From: an uncultured Candidatus Saccharibacteria bacterium
GTDB lineage: Bacteria; Patescibacteriota; Minisyncoccia; Phycocordibacterales; UBA2100
Direction of reading: 5' to 3'
DNA length: 55,220 nucleotides
Assembly (NCBI GenBank): GCA_964462785.1
Contig: CAYWZA010000005.1
Span: 1-55,220 of the forward strand
This document shows, piece after piece, positions 1,284 to 52,000 of this stretch. Numbering within the stretch: position 1 is the stretch's first letter; each line of letters starts with the position of its first letter. Position numbers and translations under genes: made by a program. The notes beneath the pieces are model-generated. The model saw nothing but the letters and a program-made list of their open reading frames with translations. It had not been told where the DNA came from and did no database searches.

Positions 1284-2117
1284 ATGCATGCCTCTGAAAC
1301 TGCGACTGCCGCACCGATAGAGCAGGAATGGTGGCGCTATACCAACGAGGAACACGACATATGGACTGCATTATTTAAACGGCAAGAAACCGTGCTGCGT
1401 AAGCGCGCATGCAATCAATTTCTGAATGGGCTAGAAGAGCTGGGCGTGATGGCACATCACATCCCCAATTTCGCTGCGCTCAATGAGGTATTGCACAAGA
1501 AGACAGGCTGGAAAGTGGTTGCCGTACCCGGACTTGTCGACGACGCGCTTTTCTTTGAGCATCTCGCAAACCGCCGCTTCCCTTCGACGCGCTTTATCCG
1601 GCGCAGAGATCAGCTCGATTACATCCAAGAGCCGGACATCTTTCACGATGTATTTGGGCACGTGCCCATGCTTGTCGACCCGATCTTCGCCGACTACATG
1701 CAAGCGTATGGCAAGGGTGGCTTGCGTGCGCTGGGCGGCGGAAACCTGCATCATCTGGCACGACTCTATTGGTATACCGTGGAGTTCGGTCTCGTGAATA
1801 CCCCACAAGGCATGCGGATCTATGGCTCTGGAATCGTTTCATCGAGCAAAGAGTCAGTCTACGCGCTCGAGTCGCCACGACCGCATCGCATCGCGTTTGA
1901 TTTGCTGCGCGTTATGCGCACCCAGTATCGAATCGATGATCTGCAGGAAGTGTATTTTGTCATCAACTCAATTGAAGAGTTGATGGATATTACGCTCAAA
2001 GATTTTGGTGCGATATATACAACGCTCGAGCATATGCCTGCGGCGGACAAAAATCTCGCGCCAAATGCACTCGTGCCGAGTGATGCGCTGTTTACAATCG
2101 GAACTACTGATAGCTGA
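1284..2117 (+). CDS. phhA: Phenylalanine 4-monooxygenase (pterin-dependent aromatic amino acid hydroxylase)
   Basis: EPDIFHDVFGHVPML (Fe-ligating His pair), LYWYTVEFGL, YGSGIVSSSKE; GGAGG SD upstream. Confidence 0.93.
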   Translation: MHASETATAAPIEQEWWRYTNEEHDIWTALFKRQETVLRKRACNQFLNGLEELGVMAHHIPNFAALNEVLHKKTGWKVVAVPGLVDDALFFEHLANRRFPSTRFIRRRDQLDYIQEPDIFHDVFGHVPMLVDPIFADYMQAYGKGGLRALGGGNLHHLARLYWYTVEFGLVNTPQGMRIYGSGIVSSSKESVYALESPRPHRIAFDLLRVMRTQYRIDDLQEVYFVINSIEELMDITLKDFGAIYTTLEHMPAADKNLAPNALVPSDALFTIGTTDS

Positions 2118-4128: not shown

Positions 4129-5646
4129 CTATTCCACCGTATACGTGAACATCATGCCCGCTTCGATGTGCTCGAGGATGTGACAGTGCGCCATCCATAC
4201 GCCTAGGTTAGAGGGATCGAGAAGGATGTCGACTGTTTCGCCGGCTTTGATTAATGTTGTGTCTTTCCAAACGAGATTGGTCTCTTTCACGCCATCACGC
4301 TCAAGCACGAGGAATCTGTTGCCGTGGAAATGGATCGGGTGCTGCATTGGATGCATTGATTTCGGATCATTGAAGATCCGAATCTTTACTGGCTCGTCGC
4401 GCTTGAGTGCCCAGTTGATATCCATGTCTATCTTCCCTGTATCCTGATCGACGATGTGCCACTTCGTCGAATCGGCAGTAGTATTTGCATTCATCATCGC
4501 GTGCGAGTCTTCCCACTCGATGCCACCCGCAGGCGCACCCATCATGCCGCCCATGCTACCCATGTTCATACCACCCATGCCTCCCATTCCCATCATGTCG
4601 ATCGTGAGCGTAAGACGCTTATCAGGCGCTTTGTCGAAGTATTGCCTAAACGAATCGATACTTGCCTTGGTCGCCTGATGTTCCGGAATGTCAGCGAACG
4701 CTTCCGCATACGAGGGCAGAGCCGCCTCGCTCTCGATCGCGATCGAGCCGAGTGCCGTCATGCCAGACGGCGTATCGTTTACGATGGTTGTTGGCGACTG
4801 GATCAAGACATCGACGATCGCACGCTCGGAAGGTCCAAGAAGAACGCTATCCACCCATTGCGCTTTTTCATACGCGCCGTTGTCGCCGCCGACGAGCTTC
4901 ATCCTTGTCCCCTTGATCGCAAAATTGAACGGGCGCGTATTCGCCGCGTTCGTAAGATAGAGGCGCACAACTTCTCCCTTCTTCGCCCGGAGGACGAAAT
5001 TCTCTTGCCCGTTCACAAGCATCACATTGCCGAAACGACCCATGAGCACGTGATCAGTGCCGGTCTTGCTCAGATTGAGTTTGCCACCCTCAATGAGGAT
5101 ATCGTCGAGAAACAAGGCGACTTCCCTGTTGACTGGCGTCCAGTACGATTCGTCTGCAGGGATGACAATGAAATTTCCATAAAGCCCCATTTCCTGTGCG
5201 TACGCATCATGCACGTGCGGGTGGTACCAATATGCACCAGCGTCGGGGAACTTAAGTTTGTACGTAAAGCTCTCACCAGGCTCCATCTCTTTCTGTGTCA
5301 CCTGTGAGCCATCGAAAGCGTTATCCATGCGCACGCCGTGCGAATGCAGGAGCGTCTTGATGTCGGTCGCGTTCGTGAAGTTGATCGTGATTTCCGCACC
5401 TTGTGGAACTTTGATCAGTGGTCCTGGGATGGAGCCGTTGTATGCGAGCATCGTATGTGCGCGACCAGCGATCGTCTTCTGCACCTCATCCATGACGAGA
5501 TCGTAGGAATCACCATTTTTCAACTCAACGACGGTGCTTTCTTCGGCGGTGGTCAACTGTGCAGTGTTCGTGCGCGTGTCCGTGTACGCTCCGTAAACAG
5601 CGATGGTAAAGAAGAGCGCCGCGCCTATCAGTACTTTTTTGTTCAT
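4129..5646 (-). CDS. Multicopper oxidase (CueO/CopA-like), exported
   Basis: HSHG, YWYHPH, HPIHFHG, HCHILEHIEAGM copper motifs; Met/Gly-rich insert. Confidence 0.93.
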   Translation of the reverse strand: MNKKVLIGAALFFTIAVYGAYTDTRTNTAQLTTAEESTVVELKNGDSYDLVMDEVQKTIAGRAHTMLAYNGSIPGPLIKVPQGAEITINFTNATDIKTLLHSHGVRMDNAFDGSQVTQKEMEPGESFTYKLKFPDAGAYWYHPHVHDAYAQEMGLYGNFIVIPADESYWTPVNREVALFLDDILIEGGKLNLSKTGTDHVLMGRFGNVMLVNGQENFVLRAKKGEVVRLYLTNAANTRPFNFAIKGTRMKLVGGDNGAYEKAQWVDSVLLGPSERAIVDVLIQSPTTIVNDTPSGMTALGSIAIESEAALPSYAEAFADIPEHQATKASIDSFRQYFDKAPDKRLTLTIDMMGMGGMGGMNMGSMGGMMGAPAGGIEWEDSHAMMNANTTADSTKWHIVDQDTGKIDMDINWALKRDEPVKIRIFNDPKSMHPMQHPIHFHGNRFLVLERDGVKETNLVWKDTTLIKAGETVDILLDPSNLGVWMAHCHILEHIEAGMMFTYTVE

Positions 5647-35989: not shown

Positions 35990-37695
<1,706 letters not shown>

Positions 37696-37701
37696 ACTTA
37701 T

Positions 37702-38619
37702 TTACCGCATTGCTTCGATGCCGCTCGTTATTTCGGTGACTTCACGAGTGATGGCGGCTTGGCGGGCTTTATTGTACGCCAAAGTGAGCTCTTTGCCTAC
37801 TTCCTTCGCTTTGTCGGTGGCGTTTTTCATCGCCACCATGCGCGCGCTGTGCTCGGATGCTTTTGCCTCCAAGAGCGCGTGGAACACGGCGATGTTGAGA
37901 ATTTTTGGCATGATTGCATCAAATACTTCGCCTGCGGAGGGCTCGATGGTATAGACCGGCGGATGCGTCGGGTCGGAGCGCTTGATGCCGGCGTATTTGC
38001 CTTTGACCGGCGCGATACCAAGCACCATTTCCTCCATCATTTTTTTGGTGATGGGGAGAATCTGGCGCGCGACAGGCTTCTGCTCGAAGGTGGAGAGGAA
38101 ATTGGTGTAGATCATGATAGCATCACCCGCCTCCCCGCTTTCGCGCCACGCAAGAATATCGTCCGTAATTGCGCGCATGTCCTGCTCAGAGACGCCATCG
38201 CTCACGTTTTCCTTGCGATCACGCACATCGTATCCGCGGTTCGCGAAATAATCCGCGCCGCGGCGACCGATGCAGAAAAATATCGTGTTTTCTTTCGTGA
38301 GCTTGCGCTCGGTGAGCGCGCGCTCGACCTGCTTCACCGCGGCGCTATTTAAGGCGCCCGCGAGACCCCTGTCGCTCGTGACCACAATCACCACTGTTTT
38401 CCCTTCCCGTTGGCTCATGAGAGGATGCAATGTCACTTCATGGCTGCTCGAGATGCGTTCGAGAATAGAAAGCGCGGCGGCGGCGTAGGGGCGCGCGGCA
38501 AGGGCGCGCTCCTGAGATTTGCGCATCTTGACCGCTGAAACGGCTTCCATCGCGCGCGTCACTTTCCGCGTCTTTCCCACGGATAGAATCTTTAATTTTA
38601 TGTTTTTAAGTCCTGCCAT
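37702..38619 (-). CDS. atpG: F-type ATP synthase gamma
   Basis: TRAMEAVSAVK, TSDRGLAGALN, SEHSARMVAMKNATD, YNKARQAAITRE. Confidence 0.97.
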   Translation of the reverse strand: MAGLKNIKLKILSVGKTRKVTRAMEAVSAVKMRKSQERALAARPYAAAALSILERISSSHEVTLHPLMSQREGKTVVIVVTSDRGLAGALNSAAVKQVERALTERKLTKENTIFFCIGRRGADYFANRGYDVRDRKENVSDGVSEQDMRAITDDILAWRESGEAGDAIMIYTNFLSTFEQKPVARQILPITKKMMEEMVLGIAPVKGKYAGIKRSDPTHPPVYTIEPSAGEVFDAIMPKILNIAVFHALLEAKASEHSARMVAMKNATDKAKEVGKELTLAYNKARQAAITREVTEITSGIEAMR

Positions 38620-38621
38620 AA

Positions 38622-38909
38622 TTACTGGATCATTGTTGTACCGCCATGCCGCGCGGTGCCCATTCGTACGTAATCAGCTTTGCATTCATTCATGAGCTCA
38701 CGCAGCTCTGCGATTCTTTTATAGGTCTCTTGGATATCTTTTAAAAAGGCCTCCTTGTGCGCTTCGTTGGATTCCTGCTCCATTTTCTGTTTTGTGTCTG
38801 CAATATTGGATTCGAGCACTGCAATGTTGCTCGCAATTATTTTCATGGCTTCTTCCGCTGCAGCCTCATTGCTTCCTGATGGTGCCTGCAAGCCTTCGCG
38901 AGGATTCAT
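38622..38909 (-). CDS. Hypothetical coiled-coil protein inserted in the atp operon
   Basis: Fills the atpA-atpG gap; helical heptad pattern. Confidence 0.65.
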   Translation of the reverse strand: MNPREGLQAPSGSNEAAAEEAMKIIASNIAVLESNIADTKQKMEQESNEAHKEAFLKDIQETYKRIAELRELMNECKADYVRMGTARHGGTTMIQ

Positions 38910-38913
38910 ACGT

Positions 38914-40476
38914 TTACTTCATTAACTCTGTGTGCGTTTCCGCAAACATTTCGAGCGCTTTGTTGAGCAAATCTTTTGCACCATCGCTAATCGCTTTCTC
39001 TTTTCTGATGGTATCCATGATGCGCTCGTGCTGCCCATCAAGATACGCGAGGAGTTTCTCCTCGGCTTCGTGCAGGCGCGCGATAGGCACTTTGTTGAGA
39101 TATCCATTTACTGCCGTGTAGAGCACCACCACCTGATCCTCAAATGGCATGGGCTTCCCCCTTCCCTGCTTCAATATTTCAACCATGCGCCGACCGTCAT
39201 CAATGCGCTTCGCCGTCTCTGCATCGAGATCCTGCGCGAATTGCACAAATGCCTCAAGCTCACGGAATTGCGCAAGAGAAAGGCGCAGCGTGCCGGCAAC
39301 TCCCTTCATTGCTTTCGTCTGTGCGGCAGATCCGACACGCGAGACGGAGATACCGACGTCGATAGCAGGGCGAATACCCTTGTTAAAGAGCCCGGCATCG
39401 AGATAGATCTGTCCGTCGGTGATTGAAATGACGTTTGTCGGAATGTATGCCGATACGTCTCCTTCTTGCGTTTCGATAATGGGAAGCGCGGTAAGCGAGC
39501 CTCCTCCTTTTGCATCCGAGAGCTTTGCCGCGCGCTCGAGCAAGCGCGAGTGCAAGTAGAAAATATCTCCCGGATATGCCTCGCGACCCGGCGGACGGCG
39601 AAGAAGCAGGGAGAGCTGACGATACGCGACCGCCTGCTTTGAAAGGTCGTCATAGATTACCAGCGCATCGCGCCCCTTATCCATGAAATATTCTCCGATT
39701 GCAGCGCCAGCAAACGGGGCAAGAAACTGAAGTGCCGCCGGAGCTGACGCAGGAGCATCAACAACGATTGTGTATTCGAGAGCGCCGCGCTGCTCGAGCT
39801 CTGCCATGATGCGTGCCGTTTTCGATTCCTTCTGCCCAATAGCGACATAAATACAAATCGGGCGCGTCTCTTTCGGTTCGTGTTTCTGGGCAATGATCGT
39901 GTCGATCGCGATCGTCGTCTTACCCGTAAAGCGATCGCCGATGATAAGCTCGCGTTGCCCGCGCCCTATGGGAATCATGGCATCGATTGATTTGATACCG
40001 GTTTGAAGCGGCGTACCCACCGATTTACGTTCAATAACACCATACGCTTCGCGCTCGATGGGTGTAAACTTTGTGTCTTTAATCGGGCCCTTGCCGTCAA
40101 TCGGCTCGCCAAGTGCGTTGACCACGCGCCCCACGATATGCTCGCCCACAGGAATAGAGAGCACACGCCCCGTAGATTTCACGAGCATGCCCTCGCGCAA
40201 ACGACTGGTATCACCAAGCACCACCGCGCGTACACCGTCCTCTTCAAGATTTAATATGAGACCGTAGAGCAGCCCTTCTGACTCCAGCGCGTCCTTAAGC
40301 TGCTTGCCATCACTCTCCTCAAATTGCACCACTTCCGACATAAGCGCCTGCTCCAAGCCGTCAATGGAAACAACACCATCGCCCACTGCGGTGATACGCC
40401 CCACATGCTCACGCTCTTTGCTTGGGGCAAAGTGCTCGATCTCCTTTATGATTTTTTCGATCATTGACGATTCCAT
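38914..40476 (-). CDS. atpA: F-type ATP synthase alpha
   Basis: [38 protein letters not shown]. Confidence 0.98.
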
Positions 40477-40482
40477 ATTGAT

Positions 40483-40872
40483 TTATCGGATTATGCTTGC
40501 ATAGAGCGACATCAGATGCTTTTTAAAACTATTGTCGATGAGTGTGTTGTGCGCCTCCATGCGCCAACCGCCAATGAGCGTGTCATCGAGGCGAACGTGC
40601 ACCGCATGCGTATCAACACCGAGCTCTTTCATCTGCTCGGCTGCCTCTCGTTTGGCATGCGCTGCGTCACGCTCATGTGCAACGCTTACTGCTACTTCGT
40701 GCCGACGCTTGTGTGCCGACTCACGCCGATCCAAAATTGCCGGCAAGCGTGCCATGACGCCATGCATACCACGCGCCTCGGCATAGCGCTTGAACGCCGC
40801 CACGGCCTCCTTGGGATTAGCGCCGCGTTCAGTCATGGCAATCAATGCGTCTGCGTAGATATCAGTTTTCAT
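40483..40872 (-). CDS. atpH: F-type ATP synthase delta (short form)
   Basis: YADALI start, DDTLIGGWRM...IDNSFK; position between atpF and atpA. Confidence 0.8.
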   Translation of the reverse strand: MKTDIYADALIAMTERGANPKEAVAAFKRYAEARGMHGVMARLPAILDRRESAHKRRHEVAVSVAHERDAAHAKREAAEQMKELGVDTHAVHVRLDDTLIGGWRMEAHNTLIDNSFKKHLMSLYASIIR

Positions 40873-40885
40873 ACCGGGATAACGA

Positions 40886-41335
40886 TTATGCACTGTGCTT
40901 ACGCAATAATTTTTCGGCAGCGAGCACAGCCGCACGCGCAATCTCCTTCTCGCTCGCCGAACGAATTTCTTTTGCCTCGGCAAACGCACGCATACGTGCC
41001 TCTTGGATGCCGGCATCGGCGCGGCGTTGCGCCTCTTCAAGAATCGCGGCACTCTTTTCCTCGGCGCGCGTGCGGGCCGTGGCATACATGGATTCTGCTG
41101 TATGCGACGCTTTCGTGATGATTTCCTTTCCCTCGCTGTCGGCAGCAGCAAGCTTTTGTGCAGCCGCATGCGCCTCCTCGACCCCGCGTGCAATAAGAGC
41201 ACGGCGCTCGTCGATCATTTTCAAAACCGGCTGATACAAAAATTTCCACAGCACCAGGAGCACCAGTGTGAAATTGAAACCCTGCGCGAGCAGCAGTTTC
41301 CAATTGATGCCAAATGTGGTGAGGAGTTCTTGCAT
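40886..41335 (-). CDS. atpF: F-type ATP synthase b
   Basis: FGINWKLLLAQGFNF...KFLYQPVLKMIDERR, coiled coil, AAEKLL. Confidence 0.92.
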   Translation of the reverse strand: MQELLTTFGINWKLLLAQGFNFTLVLLVLWKFLYQPVLKMIDERRALIARGVEEAHAAAQKLAAADSEGKEIITKASHTAESMYATARTRAEEKSAAILEEAQRRADAGIQEARMRAFAEAKEIRSASEKEIARAAVLAAEKLLRKHSA

Positions 41336-41394
41336 GGTACATGGGAGCAGAGCGTTCAAGCATTTTTAAAAATGTCTGCACGTTTTGCGACTGC

Positions 41395-41667
<273 letters not shown>

Positions 41668-41755
41668 TTATTGTCGCCATACACATGGGCACATGTATTG
41701 ACTCTGCTTCAAGATAGTTGTATTATTTTTAAGGATTCACCGAGGAGATCGGTAC

Positions 41756-42007
41756 ATGCGGAAGCAATCGTTCGACGTTGGTGTCGACACTACTGATATA
41801 ACAAACTCGCCGACCTACCGCAGGAAAAAGCCAATGCATTGTCAAATCTGTGCCGAGCAGGGCGTGCACACTCGACTGAATGCCTACAATCATACGGGTT
41901 CGTGCCTGCGACATCCTCTGCCGAAAGCAGAACGACACAAGCCTTTCGAACTCGTTGGTGTCGTCTACAAAAAAGGCAGGAGGCTTAAACCGATTACTGA
42001 AGAGTAA
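41756..42007 (+). CDS. Small Cys/His-rich protein antisense within the atp operon
   Basis: AGGAG SD; CQIC...LNAYN...CLRH motif. Confidence 0.5.
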   Translation: MRKQSFDVGVDTTDITNSPTYRRKKPMHCQICAEQGVHTRLNAYNHTGSCLRHPLPKAERHKPFELVGVVYKKGRRLKPITEE

Positions 42008-42019
42008 TCGGTTCTTTTT

Positions 42020-42814
42020 TTAATGCGCCTCTGTTATTGCAAGCTTAATGAAGAAGAGTGTTAGCAGTGCAAAAATTGCCGCCTGAATAAAGCCAACGAA
42101 GACTTCAAAAAGCATGAGCGGTACCGGCAGTACGTACGGCACAAAGTATGAGATGACGACGATCAGAACTTCGCCGGCAAAGATGTTTCCGAAAAGACGA
42201 AATGAAAACGAGATGAGGCGTGCGATTTCTGACACCAGATCGATGATGCCGATGAAAAATCCCATGATCGAGTGGAAGTTGATAAACTTGCCTGCATATT
42301 TCCACACGCCAATCGTCAAAATACCTACAATTTCAATGACGCCAAAGGAAATAATCGAAAGTGCGAGTGTCATGTTGAGATCGGTATTCATCGAGCGAAA
42401 GAGCGGTATGAATCCCCCGCCCTCCTCAAAAAATCCGACGCTGCCAACACCGGGGATAAATTCGAGCAGATTGGCGGTAAAGATGAATAGAAAAATGGTC
42501 ACCAAGAGCGGCAAAAATTTGCGTGCCATGTCGCGGCTCTCCAGCGTCTCGGCAATGTAATCATACACATACTCAAGCAGCGCCTCGAAAAGCGTTTGTA
42601 TGCGGCTGGGTACGAGCTTCACCCCGCGCCCCACCATGACGCCAATAATTATGAGGAGTGTGACAGCCACCCAGCTCATCAAAAGCGTGTTCGTGATCGG
42701 CAACCCTAAAAATTCGCCCAGTCGCTCTGCGACAAGCGAAATATGTATGCCGCCGCCATGTGAAGCGGGAGCCACATGTTCCACGGCGCTTGCGGTATTC
42801 GTTGCGGTATCCAT
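42020..42814 (-). CDS. atpB: F-type ATP synthase a
   Basis: ITNT, NLLEFIPG, SFSFRLFGNIFAGE, QAAIF..LT. Confidence 0.95.
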   Translation of the reverse strand: MDTATNTASAVEHVAPASHGGGIHISLVAERLGEFLGLPITNTLLMSWVAVTLLIIIGVMVGRGVKLVPSRIQTLFEALLEYVYDYIAETLESRDMARKFLPLLVTIFLFIFTANLLEFIPGVGSVGFFEEGGGFIPLFRSMNTDLNMTLALSIISFGVIEIVGILTIGVWKYAGKFINFHSIMGFFIGIIDLVSEIARLISFSFRLFGNIFAGEVLIVVISYFVPYVLPVPLMLFEVFVGFIQAAIFALLTLFFIKLAITEAH

Positions 42815-42883
42815 CTGCCCGATTGTAGCGTAATTTTCACAAAAAGCATGCGCCCGCGAATGAATCGCGGGCGCCAAGCATCA

Positions 42884-44146: not shown

Positions 44147-44839
44147 ATGAGCAAAAAGACGGAGTGCTCGAAAAAGAAATATAAAACGCCAGAAAAGGCG
44201 CTTTTCTTTTCTATATCGGGTATGCGCGGCACCGGCAGAACGAGAGTATTCAATCGCCTGAAGTTTCTCTTGCCCGAGACTTTCCCACGAAAGTCTTTTG
44301 TGTTTCTGGACGATCCGTTCAAGGAATTATCGCATCCACTCTTATGGGCGGACAATGAACGCATGTTGCATCCCGTGAGCAGGCTCTTTAAATGCTGGGC
44401 GCATTTGAATGATTTCAGCTTGAAAAAACTTTTGCCTGCACTCAATGCATACGATGTGGTTGTTACCGACGGCTACGGTCTTAATGCGGTTTTGTATGCT
44501 ACCGCATGCGACAACTGCGCAAAGACAGACGCAGACGTGCTTGCGATGCATCATCGCATCGTCAAGGCGCGTGTGTGCGAACAGGGTATTGATCCTCCTG
44601 AGTATTTCCTGACCCGAGCCGATGTTGGCGTCGTCACCGAATTCCTGCTTGATGGAGCATGTCCCGGATTGACCAGAGATCAATGTCGCGACTTCATCCT
44701 AAAAGAAGAGTCCATCATCGACTCCTACTTTGACGAGGACAGCGGGCAAAAAAAGCCTCACATACTTGATGCCGCCTTGTCGCTGGAAGCCATGTGCGAG
44801 AATGTTGCGCATGTGGTACACAAGCGTTTAGCAGATTGA
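44147..44839 (+). CDS. Divergent thymidylate-kinase-like P-loop protein
   Basis: FFSISGMRGTGRT, LLPAL..YDVVVTDGY, PPEYFL. Confidence 0.55.
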   Translation: MSKKTECSKKKYKTPEKALFFSISGMRGTGRTRVFNRLKFLLPETFPRKSFVFLDDPFKELSHPLLWADNERMLHPVSRLFKCWAHLNDFSLKKLLPALNAYDVVVTDGYGLNAVLYATACDNCAKTDADVLAMHHRIVKARVCEQGIDPPEYFLTRADVGVVTEFLLDGACPGLTRDQCRDFILKEESIIDSYFDEDSGQKKPHILDAALSLEAMCENVAHVVHKRLAD

Positions 44840-44894: not shown

Positions 44895-46439
44895 CTACAA
44901 ATCAGTTCCTGAATAGGAAAGATTAAGGCTTTTGTTGCACAGCGGAAAATCGGGAACGATGTTGCCGGGACCAAGCTCGCCAAAAAGCGGCCAATTCATG
45001 AATGATGGATCAGAAATGGCACAGCGCTCAATGCGACCGTTTGTATCGAGAGATACCCAATCGATAACGCCACCACGGAATGATTCAGCCCAGCCAAGTG
45101 CGCTCCCCTGCTTTGGTTTTAGCGGCGTCGATACTGCTCCATGAGGCACTGTTTTTATGCAGGCACGTATTAGTGCGATTGATTCGTGTAGCTCGAGTAC
45201 GCGCACTGAGAACCGAGCGCGCACGTCGCCTGCTGTTTTCACTGCAACCGTCAAAGGCAGTGCGGCGTATGCGGCATACGGATGATCACGCCGCAAATCA
45301 GCATCCACGCCCGATGCGCGCGCTGCGATTCCGCGAGCGCCGTAGGCGCGCGCTGCCTCTTTCGAAAGCACGCCGGTGGTTTCAAAACGCTCCATCAGAC
45401 CATCACTCCCATACGCAATATCAAGAAGTCCTCGTATTTCACTCTCAAATCGCTCAAGTGTTGCGAGCAGATGCGCCTGCCCCTCCTGATCAATATCATG
45501 CGCGCCTCCGGGAAACACCGCCCCGCGAAGGAATCGGTGCCCAGTGAGAGCGGCGTGCAGCCGACGCATTTCTTCGGCGATTCTAAATCCCTGCGCCGCA
45601 AGAAAAGTAAACCCTGTGCCCATACCACCCACGTTGCCGATATCAAATATGTGCGCCGTCATACGTTCGAGTTCGTTCCACAGCACACGCAGATGCTGTG
45701 CGCGCGGAGAGACAGCGGTGCCCGTCACGCGCTCCACAGCTTCACAAAATGCGAGCGAATGCCCTACCGCCATATCGCCGGAAATGCGTTCGATGTACGG
45801 TAGCGCCTCTTGAGGGGTCTTGCCTTCAACAAGCTTCTCAACACCTTTGTGCTTGAAGAATAATTTTCCCTCGAGTGAAAGAATGCGCTCGCCGCGCACA
45901 TTAAAGCGAAAGTGCCCCGGCTCAATGATGCCCGCATGAATGGGTCCTACCGGAATTTCATAGACGCCTTTCCCTTCCACCCGATGCATGGGATACGGCA
46001 CATCGGCATGCGGCAGCTTGGTATCCCATGCGAAATCTTTTCTCAAGGGGTATGTGTGCTCTGGAATATTTTCATGATGCTCCAAGCGTCGCCAATCGGG
46101 GTGCCCCTCGGCAGTGATGCCAAACTGATCGCCGATGAGTCGCTCAAACCAATGCGCCGCCATGATCGTGCGCGTGAGTGCAGGGTACGTCGGATCGTTT
46201 TCAGGCAATTCGCTGCGTAGAATTAAAAAACCATCGTGTGCAGAAAATACTGCATGCACGGCAAATACTTTTGCGGCACGGCGTTCATCAGTCGCAAACA
46301 TGAAGACCAGCGGGCAGCGAGATGCTATGCACACATCTGCCAACACGCTGAGTTGCTCCCGCGGCACGAGCACGGGCTCGTTTGCACGAGGCTTCACGAC
46401 ACCAAGCGTCTCACCTATTTTTTCCAAAGTCATATGCAT
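44895..46439 (-). CDS. Ehr/Hyf-like large subunit (NuoC+NuoD/HycE-like) without NiFe-binding cysteines
   Basis: GPIHAGIIEPGHFRF, HKGVEK, ERISGD (for RxCGxC), DFPLCNKSLNLSYSGTDL. Confidence 0.88.
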   Translation of the reverse strand: MHMTLEKIGETLGVVKPRANEPVLVPREQLSVLADVCIASRCPLVFMFATDERRAAKVFAVHAVFSAHDGFLILRSELPENDPTYPALTRTIMAAHWFERLIGDQFGITAEGHPDWRRLEHHENIPEHTYPLRKDFAWDTKLPHADVPYPMHRVEGKGVYEIPVGPIHAGIIEPGHFRFNVRGERILSLEGKLFFKHKGVEKLVEGKTPQEALPYIERISGDMAVGHSLAFCEAVERVTGTAVSPRAQHLRVLWNELERMTAHIFDIGNVGGMGTGFTFLAAQGFRIAEEMRRLHAALTGHRFLRGAVFPGGAHDIDQEGQAHLLATLERFESEIRGLLDIAYGSDGLMERFETTGVLSKEAARAYGARGIAARASGVDADLRRDHPYAAYAALPLTVAVKTAGDVRARFSVRVLELHESIALIRACIKTVPHGAVSTPLKPKQGSALGWAESFRGGVIDWVSLDTNGRIERCAISDPSFMNWPLFGELGPGNIVPDFPLCNKSLNLSYSGTDL

Positions 46440-46446
46440 AGATATA

Positions 46447-47916
46447 TTAACTGCTGAGCGCACGCGCGATGTGCTGCGCCACCGCAAAACCTTGCGGTGT
46501 CCAGAGCGCGATGCCGATACTGATCACAAACAGATAATGAAGCGCGATGCCCGCATGCGCGACTGTCCACTTCTCACCGTGCGCGATCGATCCCCTTTCA
46601 TGATCAGGTGTTTTATACATGAATGGCATGCACTGGCGGATGAATCCCGCGGCAACAATCGTAAGCCCAAACAGCACAAGCACCACCACAAACGGGTGCA
46701 CGGCGAGCCCGCGTGCCACCAATAGATACTCACTTAAGAAAAGTGGTGAGGGCGGCACCGCCAAGAGCGCAAGTAACCCAATGAGAAACAAGGTGCCGGT
46801 ATAAGGGAGCGCGCTTAGCACTGCGCCCACATGTGAAAACTTTGTACTCTTGAAACGGTGAACAATTGATGCCGCACTAAAAAATAAAGCCGATTTGGTC
46901 AGTGCGTGCGCGACGAGATGTATGATGCCTGCCACTGCAGCAACACCGCCCAGCCCGAACGAAATAGCGATGAGACCCATGTGCTCAATCGATGAGTACG
47001 CAAGCAGCCGCTTGTAATCCTGTTGTACCAGAACAAAGGCGGCAGAAACCAAAACCGAGAGCGTGCCGAAGATAATTAATAGCCAGCCGGTCCACACACC
47101 ATCGCCAAGTGAAAGATCGACAACCATCTTAAAACGCAGTACTGCGAACAACGCAACCGGCAGCAAGATACCTGAAAGTAGCCCCGAAATAGGGGCAGGC
47201 GCCGCAGAGTGCGCATCAGGGAGCCATTGATGCATGGGCACAAAGCCTGCTTTGGTGCCATAGCCGATCAGCATAAAAATGAACGCGAGCTTCATGAGAT
47301 CGGGTGATAGCAATGCCCCTGTGGAGACAAGATCGGTCCAGTTGAGTGTGAGTGCCTCCTTCACATCTGCAAGCTGCACGGCGTAATAGGTGAATAGCAA
47401 TCCGATGAGACTCAGAGCGATGCCGGTCGAGCACAGTATAAGATATTTCCACGCCGCCTCGAGCGATCCCTGCTTTGCATAAAATGCGACGAGCAATGTC
47501 GTTGCGAGCGTCGTTGCCTCCACTGCAATCCACAGCACGCCGAGGTTATTTGCGAGAATGGTTGCGGACATCGCAAGCACAAACAGAGCCAAGAGCGCCG
47601 TGTATTGCTGTGCATTCCGCAGCGAGATAATGCCCTCGTGCAATTCCTCATCGAGATGTGGCACGCTCGTCAAAACTGCTGTCCATTGCATGAACGAAAC
47701 AAGCATCAAGAGCACCCCCGCAGCTGCATCTATGTACCACATGCCTCCGCCGATAAGTGACGCGTGGAAAATTCCTTCCAGACCAAGGTACGCGCCCAGC
47801 GCGAATACCACCGTGCTCCATGCATACGTCACCCCAAACAACATGCGCACATTTCTGGTGATAAACGGTAGCGCGCCCCCCAGTGCACATACGCCAAGAA
47901 AAATATACGTAGTCAT
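46447..47916 (-). CDS. hyfF: Antiporter-like membrane subunit (HyfF-like)
   Basis: WIAVEATTL, EAAWKY, GTKAGFVPMHQWLPDAHSAAP, KRLLAYSSIEHMG. Confidence 0.85.
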   Translation of the reverse strand: MTTYIFLGVCALGGALPFITRNVRMLFGVTYAWSTVVFALGAYLGLEGIFHASLIGGGMWYIDAAAGVLLMLVSFMQWTAVLTSVPHLDEELHEGIISLRNAQQYTALLALFVLAMSATILANNLGVLWIAVEATTLATTLLVAFYAKQGSLEAAWKYLILCSTGIALSLIGLLFTYYAVQLADVKEALTLNWTDLVSTGALLSPDLMKLAFIFMLIGYGTKAGFVPMHQWLPDAHSAAPAPISGLLSGILLPVALFAVLRFKMVVDLSLGDGVWTGWLLIIFGTLSVLVSAAFVLVQQDYKRLLAYSSIEHMGLIAISFGLGGVAAVAGIIHLVAHALTKSALFFSAASIVHRFKSTKFSHVGAVLSALPYTGTLFLIGLLALLAVPPSPLFLSEYLLVARGLAVHPFVVVLVLFGLTIVAAGFIRQCMPFMYKTPDHERGSIAHGEKWTVAHAGIALHYLFVISIGIALWTPQGFAVAQHIARALSS

Positions 47917-47925
47917 AGCTGATTT

Positions 47926-48573
47926 CTAACCCACAAGATCCCGCATACGATCGGTGCTGACAGAGTCATGCTCGTGTTGAGCACGATACACCAGCGCCAT
48001 CATGAGGACAAAGCCGATCAGCACATCAAACAGTATGCCGATCTCCAAAAGAAGTGGCATGCCGTGCACCAGCGCAAGCCCGAATGTAAAGATACCGTTT
48101 TCAAGCGTCAAAAAACCTGTCCCCTGCCCGAATAGATCCTTGCGGGTAATGAGCAGCAGGAAACCAATGAGCACGAGTGAGAATGATGTTGCGACGATAA
48201 TGTATTCCGCTTTGGGAAATGCGTACACGCGCGCTGCCCAAAACGCACCTGCGATGAGTGCCGCTGAAAGAAACGAGAGCACTGCGGGGCGCGCATACGA
48301 TTCGAGCCGTTGCGATACGCGCGGGCGTGTCGCCGCATGGCTTAGAAAATACGGCACCGCGATAACTTTGACCACGAGCACAAGGAACGCCGATATATAC
48401 AGTGCTGAATCATCCAGTACGAGCGCGAGAGCTACGGTGAACAGCGCGAGGAAAAGCGACTGCATGCGGAACCACGTGATGAGCGAAAAAAGTCGCATGC
48501 GGCTCGACAGCAAAAATGCGGAGAGCAGCATGGCGGACGCAAGCAGTGGAATTATTGGTGGTATTGCAGACAT
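47926..48573 (-). CDS. hyfE: Membrane subunit (HyfE-like)
   Basis: Hydrophobic, K...VP, Q..GFLTLENGI, P.LLEIGILFD. Confidence 0.8.
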   Translation of the reverse strand: MSAIPPIIPLLASAMLLSAFLLSSRMRLFSLITWFRMQSLFLALFTVALALVLDDSALYISAFLVLVVKVIAVPYFLSHAATRPRVSQRLESYARPAVLSFLSAALIAGAFWAARVYAFPKAEYIIVATSFSLVLIGFLLLITRKDLFGQGTGFLTLENGIFTFGLALVHGMPLLLEIGILFDVLIGFVLMMALVYRAQHEHDSVSTDRMRDLVG

Positions 48574-48574
48574 A

Positions 48575-49519
48575 TTATGTAAACGCAATTGCGAGCGCCG
48601 CAATGAAAGAGCTGACCGCAACAAGAAATGCCAAAAGTGCGTATTCCTGCATACGATAGAAACGCATCTTCACTACCAGCGTTTCAATGAGTGCCAGTCC
48701 GCACGGCGCTACTACAACTTTGATCATGCCTATGAGCAATGCGATTGCTACGGCGCCTAATGCCACTCCGGATACCGTCACATACACAGGCATGGCAATG
48801 TTGAGTACCAGTGTTGAAAGTACGATGAGTTTGATTGCAGAGGCATATTCGAGCATCGCAAGATACGGCCCTGAATATTCGAGCACCATCGCTTCGTGCA
48901 CCATCGTGAGCTCAAGGTGCGTTGCCGGATTATCGACCGGATAGCGGGCATTTTCGAGTAGTGCGGCGAACGCAAGCGCCAGCGCCGCGAGCAGCGTTGG
49001 GGCAATTGCATGCAAGGGAAATTGCGAAGCGTTCGCGAGTATGCCTCCTATGCTCCATGAGCCGTATAGTGCTCCTAAGACTGCAAACACCAGAAACAAC
49101 GTCGGTTCGATGATTGCCGCAAGTATCATCTCGCGACTCGATCCCATGTTGCCAAACGTGCTGCCGGTATCCATGCCGCCGAATACGAGGAAGACCACTC
49201 CTAACGCCAACACGCCGGTGATCAAAAACACATTATCGAACGAGGTCAGGAGCGGATTCACCGCGAACGCCGGAATAATGCAGGCGAGTACGACCGCGGT
49301 TGTCAGAACCATATAGGGAACTGTGTGAAAGACCCATGTGCTCCATTCCGGTATGGTCATTTCCTTTTTGCACAACGTTGCCAATGCCCAGTACGGCTGA
49401 AAGATAGATGCGCCGCGCCGATTTTGCAGCCGAGCTTTTGTCGTGCGTACGATACCGAGAAACAGCGGCGCGAGCGCGAGGAAAAAAATCGGCTGGATGA
49501 TAAGGAGCGCTATATTCAT
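48575..49519 (-). CDS. hyfC: NuoH/HyfC-like membrane subunit
   Basis: KARLQNRRG...QPY, MDTGSTFGNMGSSRE, ENARYPVDNPATHLELTMVHEAMVLEYSG. Confidence 0.85.
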   Translation of the reverse strand: MNIALLIIQPIFFLALAPLFLGIVRTTKARLQNRRGASIFQPYWALATLCKKEMTIPEWSTWVFHTVPYMVLTTAVVLACIIPAFAVNPLLTSFDNVFLITGVLALGVVFLVFGGMDTGSTFGNMGSSREMILAAIIEPTLFLVFAVLGALYGSWSIGGILANASQFPLHAIAPTLLAALALAFAALLENARYPVDNPATHLELTMVHEAMVLEYSGPYLAMLEYASAIKLIVLSTLVLNIAMPVYVTVSGVALGAVAIALLIGMIKVVVAPCGLALIETLVVKMRFYRMQEYALLAFLVAVSSFIAALAIAFT

Positions 49520-51471
49520 AAGGCAAAAATGATTGTCGCGATAAGTGTCAACAACACCAGCAACAGATAGACTTGCACCACCCCGCTTTGCAGGCGACGT
49601 ACGAAATTCGCACCGGCGAGCATCCAATTCCCGATATGGTGATAGAGCCAGTGTTCCCATATTGATTGAATGTTCCATGCTAGCTGTTTGCGGACGATCC
49701 ACGGGTTCGATGGACTCACCGATGTGCTACTGAATTGCTTGTTCGTAATCAGCAACATGCGGAAGAAAAAGCGGGCGGGTGCCGCAAAACCGGTCGCCGA
49801 ATATTGCATGCGCGGTGAAAGCGGTGCGCCACAATCCCATGTCCCCGTCGTGCGCATGGAAAAACGCACGCTGCGCGCGATTGCGAACATGAGCAGGACG
49901 ACCGCAATTGCGGCAACCGTAATGTGCCAAGGATTCAAGAGTGCATTTGGCACAATTGAAAGTGGCGAGAACCATGCGTACGTCTTCGGCATCAACATCG
50001 GTACAATCGCAAAGCTGGTGAGAAGCGACAGCGCGGCGCACATCGCGGGTGGCGCAGTGAGCGTGAAGGGAAGTTGCTGAAGATCATGCGCATGCTCAGT
50101 GCGAGGTCGCCCGAGAAAAAGCACACTAAATAATCTCACTGATGCAAAGAGAGCAAGTCCGGCAACGAGTGCGACGAGTGCGAGTATTACTGCTGCACCG
50201 GTCGCTAGTATTGCCGGTAAGCCACTCATCCCGACCGCGAGCGATTGTACGTATAGCCATTCGCCGAAGAACGCGCCAAACGGCGGCAGCGCTGCGGCAG
50301 CAAGAGAGAGTGCGAGCACCACGCCGGAAAATACCGGCCAGACGCGCGCGAGCCCTCCCATCTCATCCAAATCGTGTGTGTGTGTTTCCGAGACAATCGC
50401 GCCAATACTCATAAAGAGTCCTGTTTTGAAAAGCAGATGGTTGAGCGCGTGGAGGAGCAAGAATAACTCGACGCTATGCGCAAGAGCCGCGGTAACTGGG
50501 GTGGGCACCAGTACGCGCACCATAAGGAGCACCCCTGCTGCAGAAAAAAGCAAACCCATATGCTCGACCGATGACCACGCAAGCAATCGCTTAGCATCGT
50601 TTTCTACCGCCGCATGGATGCTGCCGAAGACCGCAGAGACGAGCCCGATCACAATCACCACGAACGACCACAGTGGATGAATAACCGGAAATAAACGCGC
50701 CGTTTCCAAAAATCCAAAGAACGCAACAATAAGCATCACTCCCGAGAGTAGCGCCGAGCTATGGCTTGGTGCTTGCGGGTGCGCATACGGCAACCATTGA
50801 TGCAGCGGCACCAGTCCCGCCTTTGATCCGAATCCCGCAAAGAGAAGCATGAATGCTGTCGCGAGCATCGTTGGTGTGAGTCTTGTTGCAGATTGCACAA
50901 CCTGCTGCCACGGAGAAAATATCGCTCCTTGCGCAAGCAGCAGAAATCCGGTGAGTAGCGCAAAGAATCCTATCTGGGTCACTACAAAATAGAGAAAACC
51001 GGCATAGAGCGATTCCTCACTCCGGTCAGCGACCACCAGAAAATATGCCGCAACCGACATGACTTCCCAGCTGATGAGAAATGCTGCCGGAGAATTCGCG
51101 AGCACCACCGCACACATGCCGCTCACGAAAAGCGCAGATGCAGTATTGACCGCGCGCAAAGAAAACGTCGACGCATACCGCGGCAGATATCCAATCGCAA
51201 AAAAAGAGGTGAGCAACACACCTAATGAAATACATCCAAAAAAGAGCGCTGAGAGCGCGTGTATGCGCAGCAGCCCATACGCGATAGGCACCGCTTCTGA
51301 ATTAGCAGTGAGCCCATACACAATCGCCGCCGCCATGCCAATTCCCGCACCCAGTATCATCAGAATCTGTGCGAGTGTATTTCGCTGCGGCAGAGCAACA
51401 GCGACGATTGCCGACATGCCGAAGCATGCAAACATGCCATATATATAGTATGTGAGCATTGGATCAACCAT
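49516..51471 (-). CDS. hyfB: Antiporter-like membrane subunit (HyfB-like)
   Basis: SWEVMS, GSKAGLVPLHQWLPYAHPQAPS, KRLLAWSSVEHMG, TWDCG...RMQYSATGF. Confidence 0.85.
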   Translation of the reverse strand: MVDPMLTYYIYGMFACFGMSAIVAVALPQRNTLAQILMILGAGIGMAAAIVYGLTANSEAVPIAYGLLRIHALSALFFGCISLGVLLTSFFAIGYLPRYASTFSLRAVNTASALFVSGMCAVVLANSPAAFLISWEVMSVAAYFLVVADRSEESLYAGFLYFVVTQIGFFALLTGFLLLAQGAIFSPWQQVVQSATRLTPTMLATAFMLLFAGFGSKAGLVPLHQWLPYAHPQAPSHSSALLSGVMLIVAFFGFLETARLFPVIHPLWSFVVIVIGLVSAVFGSIHAAVENDAKRLLAWSSVEHMGLLFSAAGVLLMVRVLVPTPVTAALAHSVELFLLLHALNHLLFKTGLFMSIGAIVSETHTHDLDEMGGLARVWPVFSGVVLALSLAAAALPPFGAFFGEWLYVQSLAVGMSGLPAILATGAAVILALVALVAGLALFASVRLFSVLFLGRPRTEHAHDLQQLPFTLTAPPAMCAALSLLTSFAIVPMLMPKTYAWFSPLSIVPNALLNPWHITVAAIAVVLLMFAIARSVRFSMRTTGTWDCGAPLSPRMQYSATGFAAPARFFFRMLLITNKQFSSTSVSPSNPWIVRKQLAWNIQSIWEHWLYHHIGNWMLAGANFVRRLQSGVVQVYLLLVLLTLIATIIFAL

Positions 51472-51472
51472 A

Positions 51473-52000
51473 CTATTTTTTTCTCCCCTGCTGGATCGCC
51501 GTAAGGATGCCCGTCAAAATTTCAGTTGGGGTTGGCGGATCACCCGGAATTTTATAATCCACGGGTATCACGGCGTCAACTGATCCCACCACTGCATATG
51601 AATCTTTCCAGATCCCGCCTGTGCAGGCGCCATCACCCACTGCAATCACGATCCGCGGTTCGGGAGTCATGCCGTACGCAGTGCGCAGCGCGTGCTCCAT
51701 ATTACGCGTCACAGGACCGGAGACAGTGAGCACATCCGCATGCCGCGGCGATGCGACAAAGGAAATTCCAAATCGCTCGATGTCGTAATACGCGTTGTTG
51801 AGCGCCGTCATTTCATACTCTTCTCCGTTCGTGGATCCTGCGTCGATATGGCGTATGCGGAGCGACCGACCGCCATAAAGCGCTTTAATTGTGTGCAAGA
51901 GATTCTCCCCTACCAGAGCATCAGCATCAGATTGCGTAACTGCCGCCGCCGGCTCAGTCTTTATCCCCGTGGAAAAAATGGTACGTAAAACACTCAACAT
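51473..52000 (-). CDS. NuoB/HycG-like small subunit lacking canonical Fe-S cysteines
   Basis: YDIERFGISFVASPRHADVL, P.P.IVIAVG, IPVD..IPGxPP; GSTNGE, GDGA and PGDPP at ligand positions. Confidence 0.85.
   Translation of the reverse strand: MLSVLRTIFSTGIKTEPAAAVTQSDADALVGENLLHTIKALYGGRSLRIRHIDAGSTNGEEYEMTALNNAYYDIERFGISFVASPRHADVLTVSGPVTRNMEHALRTAYGMTPEPRIVIAVGDGACTGGIWKDSYAVVGSVDAVIPVDYKIPGDPPTPTEILTGILTAIQQGRKK

Follow-up and report, generated by a model that had tools for sequence, protein, structure and literature searches.

Ehr complexes, reportedly defined by Marreiros et al. in 2013, include those of Geobacter sulfurreducens and M. tuberculosis (Rv0082-Rv0087), which we take to be hydrogenase-related complexes without NiFe ligands; the mycobacterial genes are said to share the B-first six-gene order of the operon described here, and the small subunits of both complexes are said to keep the cysteines of their cluster. 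Here we analyze an Ehr-type operon on a 55,220-nucleotide stretch of contig CAYWZA010000005.1 (the whole of which is called the window below), from the 983-kb genome (39 contigs, 95.8% complete) of a groundwater bacterium of the candidate phyla radiation (CPR). The operon comprises six intact open reading frames (ORFs) on the minus strand at positions 44895-52000, which are translationally coupled. We consider it the best reading of this locus, at a rough probability of 0.55, that the encoded complex is a redox-free, proton-coupled ion translocator which resembles the Mrp antiporters and would work together with the ATPase. Ion movement without electrons appears the most likely function because the redox-metal sites are lost, the ion-channel residues are kept and the atp genes adjoin the operon.

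Two described groups stand close to this operon. For the hyqBCEFGI genes of Azorhizobium caulinodans, the available part of the report states that HyqI and its orthologs have four cysteines (N2-type cluster) whereas HyqG lacks both CxxC motifs (PMC3357923). A monophyletic and patchily distributed CPR clade of group-4-related large subunits without NiFe cysteines was considered unlikely to interact with H2 by Jaffe et al. (2020, BMC Biol; PMC7304191), and the window's large subunit fits this clade as far as the available text delimits it; in that paper's main text, small subunits are mentioned only for group 3b enzymes. Ehr complexes and the CPR clade without NiFe ligands are therein already known, and their function is stated to be unknown in the available parts of PMC7304191, PMC6349859 and PMC10284858. 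We found no mention of a cysteine-free Ehr small subunit or of a link between Ehr and ATP synthase in the literature covered, to which the additional files of Jaffe et al. did not belong.

The window's complex shares with Hyq the same six subunit types, the lack of a NuoI-like subunit and the invariant NuoH-loop and pocket motifs, and the alphaproteobacterial loci with B-last gene order in our survey match the A. caulinodans hyq operon, as reported, in gene content and gene order. The two differ in gene order (B-last in Hyq, B-first in the window), in the small subunit, where Hyq keeps four cysteines and the window's protein none of them, and in setting, Hyq being reported as H2:quinone-linked in a respiring diazotroph whereas no quinone or Fe-S assembly genes were found in the window's host. 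Among solved structures, the best matches are HycC, HycD, HycE and HycG of Escherichia coli formate hydrogenlyase (7z0s) and MbhH and MbhJ of the Pyrococcus membrane-bound hydrogenase (6cfw), two enzymes that have the same modular architecture but also a NiFe site, a proximal cluster and further ferredoxin-like subunits, all of which are absent here. Set against group 4 [NiFe]-hydrogenases (Hyc/Hyf/Mbh/Ech), the complex lacks the NiFe cysteines, the proximal [4Fe-4S] cluster and the HycF/NuoI-like subunit; set against complex I, it lacks the N2 ligands in NuoB and the quinone tyrosine in NuoD, and the genome has no detected UbiA-family gene. With Ehr/Hyq it has in common the NiFe-less large subunit, the six-gene set and the absence of a ferredoxin-like subunit, but not the four-cysteine small subunit. 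Mrp antiporters (7qru, 6z16) are redox-free, as is the function proposed for the window's complex, and their MrpA and MrpD are homologous to its two antiporter-like subunits, with the Glu of transmembrane helix 5 (TM5) and the Lys of TM7, TM8 and TM12 shared; unlike the window's complex, Mrp has neither a NuoH-like subunit nor a NuoB/NuoD-like cap.

Cofactor sites and channel residues of the six subunits

The small subunit reads ...DAGSTNGEEYEM..., ...VGDGACTGG... and ...IPGDPPTP..., so that the motifs GSTNGE, GDGAC and PGDPP and the single cysteine (C126) are present as the first-pass annotation of this DNA had described them. In HMMER alignments, T57, E60, G124 and D154 stand opposite the four [4Fe-4S] cysteines of MbhJ (6cfw_J, E 1e-29) and HycG (7z0s_G). 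An AlphaFold2 model of the subunit, built with 67 Cys-poor sequences, reached a pLDDT of 91.2 and had MbhJ as its best fold match (root-mean-square deviation 1.8 A over 135 columns), although such a model does not show that the cluster-free fold is stable.

Residues 87-529 of the large subunit align end to end with HycE (7z0s_E), and this alignment confirms that both NiFe CxxC motifs are gone. The N-terminal pair of HycE (RVCGICGFAH) is replaced by RISGDMAVGH (C to S, C to M) and the C-terminal pair (DPCYSCTD) by NLSYSGTD (C to S, C to G) at the extreme C-terminus; since the protein stops one residue past NLSYSGTD, it has no maturation extension. In the alignment to 9iho_D, a Gly within RISGDM occupies the position of the complex I quinone tyrosine, which we take to be the Tyr in RLDYVS of NUCM.

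The predicted lack of a NuoI or ferredoxin subunit extends to the genome as a whole, where PF12838 (Fer4_7) had no match and a six-frame scan for CxxCxxCxxxC[PGAS] gave only one, doubtful, match on another contig. Absence of a NuoI-like subunit is the norm in the family, since ORFs with the ferredoxin-type motif CxxCxxCxxxCP occurred in only 3 of 80 related loci. No match to SufBD, NifU_N/IscU, radical SAM or UbiA was found in this 95.8% complete genome, which encodes one class-V aminotransferase; its content fits a cell unable to build Fe-S clusters or quinones. With neither a cluster ligand nor a NiFe ligand left, the earlier suggestion of redox independence is borne out, and, to the extent that sequence can tell, no electrons can pass through the complex. 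It is accordingly very improbable, in our view, that this is still a redox enzyme, with electrons arriving through a non-cysteinyl, Glu/Asp-ligated metal site or straight from a soluble donor in the way proposed for Hyq (H2:quinone): the small subunit has no conserved cysteine, ex-ligand position 3 is a Gly, the NiFe ligands have all disappeared, no ferredoxin domain, Fe-S scaffold or quinone prenyltransferase was found in the genome, and no redox partner gene recurs near either the Cys-poor or the four-Cys loci. What speaks for such an enzyme is that lineages independent of one another repeatedly carry acidic residues at the ex-ligand sites, that the window includes a multicopper oxidase gene, and that A. 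caulinodans Hyq mutants lose H2 recycling, as given in the available part of PMC3357923.

WEVMS, VEATT and KAGxVPxHxWLP were all found in the antiporter-like subunits, in agreement with the first-pass annotation, and both subunits keep the TM5 Glu and the TM7, TM8 and TM12 Lys (N-like residues aligned to 6cfw_H). We tallied these residues in the 25 Cys-poor complexes and in relatives with all four small-subunit cysteines (CCCC). For the L-like subunit, the respective counts were 25/25 and 46/49 (TM5 Glu), 25/25 and 47/49 (TM7 Lys), 25/25 and 48/49 (TM8 Lys), and 25/25 and 47/49 (TM12 Lys); for the N-like subunit they were 24/25 and 56/60, 25/25 and 58/60, 24/25 and 58/60, and 24/25 and 60/60, in the same order, most of the misses being gaps in the alignment. 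The NuoH-like loop P-x-D-N-P-x-T-H-L-E-L-T-M-x-H-E-A-M-x-L-E-Y-S-G is present in 25/25 Cys-poor and 51/51 CCCC complexes (its Asn in 50/51 of the latter).

Conservation is equally pronounced in the large subunit, where 76 positions show a conservation of 95% or more among 90 sequences, the ex-NiFe motifs being part of them; the set includes the GP.H....EPGHFR loop, the G-D of R-x-S-G-D and the tail D-F-P-x-x-N-K-S-x-x-x-S-Y-x-G-x-D. Within the former NiFe pocket, S524, Y525 and D529 are each kept in 25/25 Cys-poor members and G527 in 24/25, compared with 62-63/65 among CCCC members. The window's proteins carry both the loop signature (DNPxTHLELTMxHEAM) and the pocket signature (RxSGD; NLSYSGxD) that we derived in this analysis. 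Almost no position in the large or the NuoH-like subunit co-varied with the loss of the cysteines, and the rest of the machine therefore looks alike with or without a cluster.

These observations also bear on the strongest rival to an ion translocator, namely a non-redox converter driven by a chemical reaction or a ligand, in which the ex-NiFe pocket would bind or turn over a small substrate (e.g., CO2/HCO3-) and so drive or gate ion flow. The pocket motifs R-x-S-G-D, N-L-S-Y-S-G-x-D and GP.H....EPGHFR are as conserved without the cluster as with it, and the lack of consistent co-variation with cysteine loss in the large or NuoH-like subunit is in keeping with this idea. We could not, however, identify a set of Zn-type ligands in the pocket, and together with the neighboring genes considered below we judge such a converter to be rather unlikely.

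Conservation, selection and spread of the cysteine-poor form

A search of 5.8 billion proteins with the small subunit gave 7951 matches, and the best 120 of these (63-100% identity) were analyzed; the named records among them carry Kaiserbacteria, Patescibacteria, Parcubacteria or Minisyncoccota labels. Forty-three of these 120 relatives have no cysteine, 60 have one, 14 have two and three have three. The first-pass annotation had called for a check of purifying selection at the replacement residues, and these proved nearly invariant in the same 120 proteins: T in 104 (N in 8, S in 6, C in 1) at the first position, E in all 120 at the second, G in 119 (A in 1) at the third and D in 117 (S in 3) at the fourth. 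Dozens of further columns are invariant, while the column of C126 is not conserved (C in 68, I in 33, A in 11, V in 7).

Every gene of the operon was compared with the three nearest loci for which DNA was available (L005-L007). As synonymous sites are saturated at this distance, the proportions of nonsynonymous (pN) and synonymous (pS) differences are given instead of dN/dS; pN was 0.26-0.51 and pS 0.73-0.88. Among the six proteins, the small subunit shows the strongest conservation, with an amino acid identity of 0.62-0.64 compared with 0.35-0.55 for the other five. In contigs of a related strain, 26 of the 40 differences listed (of 244) fall at third codon positions. Taken together, these results indicate that all six proteins, those of the cap among them, are preserved by selection, and the near-invariant columns and the low pN relative to pS contradict the outcome, foreseen as a possible refutation, of sporadic substitutions under relaxed selection. 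A decaying, functionless remnant of an operon for a hydrogenase or complex I is thus hardly credible, even if every cofactor site is lost and the distribution is patchy (a small-subunit match in 18/301 genomes of the class, with 14 Ehr-type counting the window's genome): six intact, translationally coupled ORFs, more than 100 relatives with near-invariant replacement residues, a pN far below pS and the third-position bias in the related strain all speak against it. That Thr, Glu and Asp form a new metal or substrate site at the ex-ligand positions, as had also been proposed, is nevertheless doubtful; position 1 is variable (T/S/N/D), position 3 is Gly, and sister lineages use xCDD, DxDD or DPDN.

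In order to view the small subunit within its family, we took the 150 top-ranking representatives of clusters formed at 50% identity and found all four cysteines in 95. The others show patterns such as TEGD, NEGD, SEGD, NEGN, DAAD, DADN, DVDD, DIDD, DVDS, DEDS, DDDS and SAES; Cys-poor patterns are scattered over several places of the tree, and two carry Chloroflexota or Dehalococcoidia names. The DPDN subunits (two archaeal-labelled records and one Moduliflexus) are sister to a four-Cys Bacillota member with a support of 0.999, and SEGD forms are nested within xCDD forms, so that at least two independent losses of the cysteines are well supported by the trees. The midpoint-rooted tree of the four larger subunits places the window's clade beside a proteobacterial clade, and when trees of single proteins are rooted on Proteobacteria, the window's TEGD clade is not set apart from the other small-genome clade (SEGD/xCDD).

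At the level of loci, a one-genome-per-species scan supplied 80 of at least 600 loci, and all 80 have the same six genes in one of two orders. The B-first order of the window is found in 12 loci from genomes of 0.8-1.3 Mb as well as in KSB1 and Anaerolineales genomes, and the B-last order in Proteobacteria and a few others. When the small subunits of these 80 loci, ten loci from the window's class and the window itself were compared, 66/91 were CCCC and 25/91, the window's included, were not. The association with an organism type thought to lack respiration is correct only in part, since Cys-free small subunits also occur in Chloroflexota and in archaeal-labelled records.

Among 301 genomes of the window's class, SufBD was matched in 64 and had no match in 237, and Fe-S-poor proteomes may thus be common in the class. 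Thirteen of these genomes, besides the window's, have an Ehr-type small subunit, which is Cys-poor in 11. We rejected the general rule that cysteine loss follows from loss of Fe-S assembly: SufBD is present in 7/11 of the Cys-poor class genomes, and one four-Cys genome gave no SufBD match.

A broader and more tentative proposal, which we regard as possible though not probable, is that the whole six-subunit Ehr/Hyq family, and not only its CPR members, consists of non-redox machines. A small non-redox ligand, be it a proton, a cation or CO2/HCO3-, would be sensed or converted in the pocket, which in this way would control ion flow through the antiporter-like subunits, and the machine would operate in partnership with the F1Fo ATP synthase. 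The [4Fe-4S] cluster would then have a structural or regulatory part that can be dispensed with; carboxylates (xEGD, DxDD, DPDN) have independently taken its place in at least two lineages and probably more.

Operon organization, neighboring genes and the ATP synthase

The ORFs are intact and tightly coupled, as first described (Table 1): from the small subunit onward, the first two genes are 1 nt apart, the next junction is an overlap (ATGA), and the last three are gaps of 1, 9 and 7 nt. The HycD-like protein probably starts at the ATG at 49519 (residue 62 of the ORF), because the alignment with 7z0s_D begins at residue 64; this ATG overlaps the stop of the preceding gene as ATGA. The likely starts of the HyfE-like and large subunits are the ATGs at 48573 and 46439, respectively. 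The closest NCBIfam models are those of hydrogenase 4 subunits B, F and E and of NuoB and NuoD, with every score below its curated cut-off: 406 bits against 667 for hydrogenase 4 subunit B (HyfB-like subunit), 354 against 543 for a further hydrogenase model, 67 against 136 for the hydrogenase 4 membrane subunit (HyfE-like subunit) and 114.4 against 116 for a NuoB subfamily model (small subunit). The only PF01058 gene and the only two PF00361 genes of the whole genome are those of this operon.

Table 1. Positions of the Ehr-type operon, the ATP synthase genes and other features in the window, and of features at related loci (locus name before the colon).
Feature	Position	Strand	Evidence or remark
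Small subunit, HyqI/HycG/MbhJ/NuoB-like, 175 aa	51473..52000	-	PF01058 (Oxidored_q6), 94 bits
HyfB/HycC/NuoL-like antiporter-like subunit, 651 aa	49516..51471	-	PF00361 (Proton_antipo_M); 7z0s_C, E 1.5e-45
HycD/NuoH-like subunit	48575..49519 (ORF opens 49702)	-	PF00146 (NADHdh); 7z0s_D, E 2e-35
HyfE-like small membrane subunit	47926..48573 (ORF opens 48624)	-	weak PF00420 (Oxidored_q2)
HyfF/MbhH/NuoN-like antiporter-like subunit, 489 aa	46447..47916	-	PF00361 (Proton_antipo_M); 6cfw_H, E 3.5e-35
Large subunit, fused NuoC+NuoD/HycE-like	44895..46439 (ORF opens 46487)	-	PF00329+PF00346 (Complex1_30kDa + Complex1_49kDa), weak PF00374 (NiFeSe_Hases); 7z0s_E, E 1.4e-63
230-aa ORF	44147-44839	+	no Pfam or NCBIfam match
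F1Fo ATP synthase operon	35990..42877	-	Pfam; 2 kb downstream of the Ehr operon, same strand
ATP synthase a	42020-42877	-	Pfam
ATP synthase c	41395-41658	-	Pfam, NCBIfam
ATP synthase delta-like	40483-41202	-	Pfam
ATP synthase alpha	38914-40476	-	Pfam
ATP synthase gamma	37702-38619	-	Pfam
ATP synthase beta	35990-37342	-	Pfam
Three-domain multicopper oxidase, CueO/laccase-like	4129-5646	-	under NCBIfam cut-offs
Biopterin-dependent aromatic amino acid hydroxylase domain	1284-2117	+	PF00351, E 2e-48
Ehr genes inside atp operon (L144, L145)	G072:C3:9278-22333		small-subunit pattern DADD
CPA-type Na+/H+ exchanger and DedA/VTT gene	L018; L028; G210:C1:94803-97638	same as Ehr operon	SEGD-type loci
Beta-carbonic-anhydrase-like ORF	L006:18140-19327		~360-415 aa, CxDGR motif
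Beta-carbonic-anhydrase-like ORF	L011:11147-12391		~360-415 aa, CxDGR motif
Beta-carbonic-anhydrase-like ORF	L037:10800-11876		~360-415 aa, CxDGR motif
Beta-carbonic-anhydrase-like ORF	L045:2020-3162		~360-415 aa, CxDGR motif
c-di-AMP riboswitch	L057:9818-9948	+	RF00379, 58.8 bits

Upstream of the operon lie rpoD and dnaG, and downstream follow a 230-aa ORF on the opposite strand, a PD-(D/E)XK nuclease gene and then the F1Fo ATP synthase operon, so that the proximity to an ATP synthase that had been pointed out earlier is confirmed. The 230-aa ORF faces the end of the Ehr operon, and no relative of it was seen in the neighborhood of other Ehr loci. Rfam gave no match in the window. Elsewhere in it, the aromatic amino acid hydroxylase domain is unusual for a CPR genome of about 1 Mb, and the multicopper oxidase is encoded in a genome in which no Fe-S assembly or quinone genes were detected.

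The c subunit lacks the Gln/Ser-Thr/Tyr pattern which we take to mark Na+-binding rings, and the ATPase is for this reason regarded as putatively H+-coupled. In the class sample, the F1Fo gamma subunit was detected in 142/301 genomes, namely in 13/13 Ehr-type genomes, in the window's genome and in 128/287 others. Genes for the ATP synthase lie within 10-20 kb and on the same strand in 6/23 small-genome B-first loci (the window, L006, L011, L055, L063 and G072) as compared with 0/68 other loci; the 23 loci are distinct, with a top pairwise large-subunit identity of 84% between the two locus sets. The Ehr genes are upstream of the atp genes in two of these loci, downstream in three, and in G072 all six sit between atpG and atpD. 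From these associations we infer a functional partnership with the ATP synthase.

The same data could be read as an accessory or structural role without transport, in which the complex would be, for example, a platform on which the F1Fo ATP synthase is assembled, a regulator or brake of that enzyme, or a scaffold organizing the membrane. The co-occurrence in 13/13 genomes and the insertion into the atp operon of G072 would suit this role, which we nonetheless hold to be improbable, given that a scaffold would need neither the full set of buried Glu and Lys residues in two antiporter-like subunits nor an invariant NuoH loop, and that 17/23 loci are not beside atp genes.

Other neighbors of Ehr operons point to ion handling. 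In three SEGD-type loci, a gene for a CPA-type Na+/H+ exchanger (~715 aa) and a DedA/VTT gene are directly upstream, and in a fourth the VTT gene is found alone. A beta-carbonic-anhydrase-like ORF adjoins the Ehr operon in two small-genome loci (L006, L011) and two proteobacterial loci (L037, L045), and a SulP+STAS transporter is directly upstream in four proteobacterial loci, in L037 on the side opposite to the carbonic-anhydrase-like ORF. Both the carbonic-anhydrase-like and the SulP+STAS neighbors would suit the substrate-driven converter introduced above. On the other hand, the carbonic-anhydrase-like ORF adjoins only 4 of ~90 loci, its Pfam assignment is a weak CsoSCA_cat match (32.9 bits against a cut-off of 21.5) obtained with the one protein tested, and tblastn found no homolog of it in the window's genome. 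As a partner for a vectorial carbonic anhydrase system (DAB, Cup), this CsoSCA-like neighbor is accordingly missing from the genome by tblastn, a search that did not include DabA or CupA.

Two riboswitch classes were considered and set aside. The fluoride riboswitch RF01734 was found in 0/14 Ehr-bearing class genomes. In one Anaerolineales locus, a c-di-AMP riboswitch precedes the small-subunit gene of a B-first, four-Cys Ehr operon by ~50 nt and is the sole RF00379 match in this 8.8-Mb genome; we treat this link as an anecdote, as none of 30 other riboswitch loci examined (of 64, from 150 Anaerolineae genomes) adjoins an Ehr gene.

Proposed mechanism and its significance

Our favored interpretation, a proton-coupled ion translocator free of redox chemistry, can be outlined as follows. 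The complete six-subunit Ehr/Hyq-type complex without redox cofactor would act as a conformationally coupled cation/proton translocator, in which the two antiporter-like subunits and the NuoH-like subunit would conduct protons and probably a counter-ion, and the hydrogenase-derived cytoplasmic cap (small and large subunits) would be the gate or coupling element acting on the NuoH loop. In a fermenting cell without a respiratory chain, the complex would use or balance the proton gradient set up by the H+-F1Fo ATPase. The first-pass annotation had likewise proposed an ion-translocating machine, and the invariant Glu and Lys residues, the NuoH loop and the links to ATP synthase and a Na+/H+ exchanger support this part of its claim; that ions move at all, which ions these are, their direction and their coupling to the ATPase we infer from sequence.

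Several observations weigh against this interpretation. The cap is as conserved as the channel, down to the 76 invariant large-subunit positions with the ex-NiFe pocket among them, and since a passive plug would hardly call for such conservation, the cap may still have something to bind or process. With a CPA Na+/H+ exchanger already encoded in the genome, the need for a second antiporter is not obvious. The operon is devoid of the MrpB/C/E/F/G-type subunits of true Mrp antiporters, none of these families having a match among its six genes in Pfam and NCBIfam searches of the operon only. Hyq, the only relative studied genetically, is reported as an H2-recycling enzyme in the available part of PMC3357923. 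Linkage to atp genes is limited to the 6/23 loci described, the genomes behind the co-occurrence are related and not independent (the 13 Ehr-type genomes fall in 5 families), and cysteine loss does not track the loss of Fe-S assembly, as the seven SufBD-bearing Cys-poor class genomes illustrate.

The coupling mechanism shared by complex I, membrane hydrogenases and Mrp antiporters is still debated, and a natural complex whose cap, NuoH loop and antiporter modules are under strong selection without a redox centre would provide a built-in control for the role of the cap apart from electron transfer. It may also represent a living intermediate between Mrp and the redox-driven enzymes, and the repeated, convergent replacement of an Fe-S site by Asp and Glu bears on how such sites come to be lost. 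For CPR biology, the complex is a candidate device for handling an ATPase-made proton gradient in ultra-small, non-respiring bacteria; within the class sample, it occurs only in genomes that also have the ATPase, and once inside the atp operon itself.

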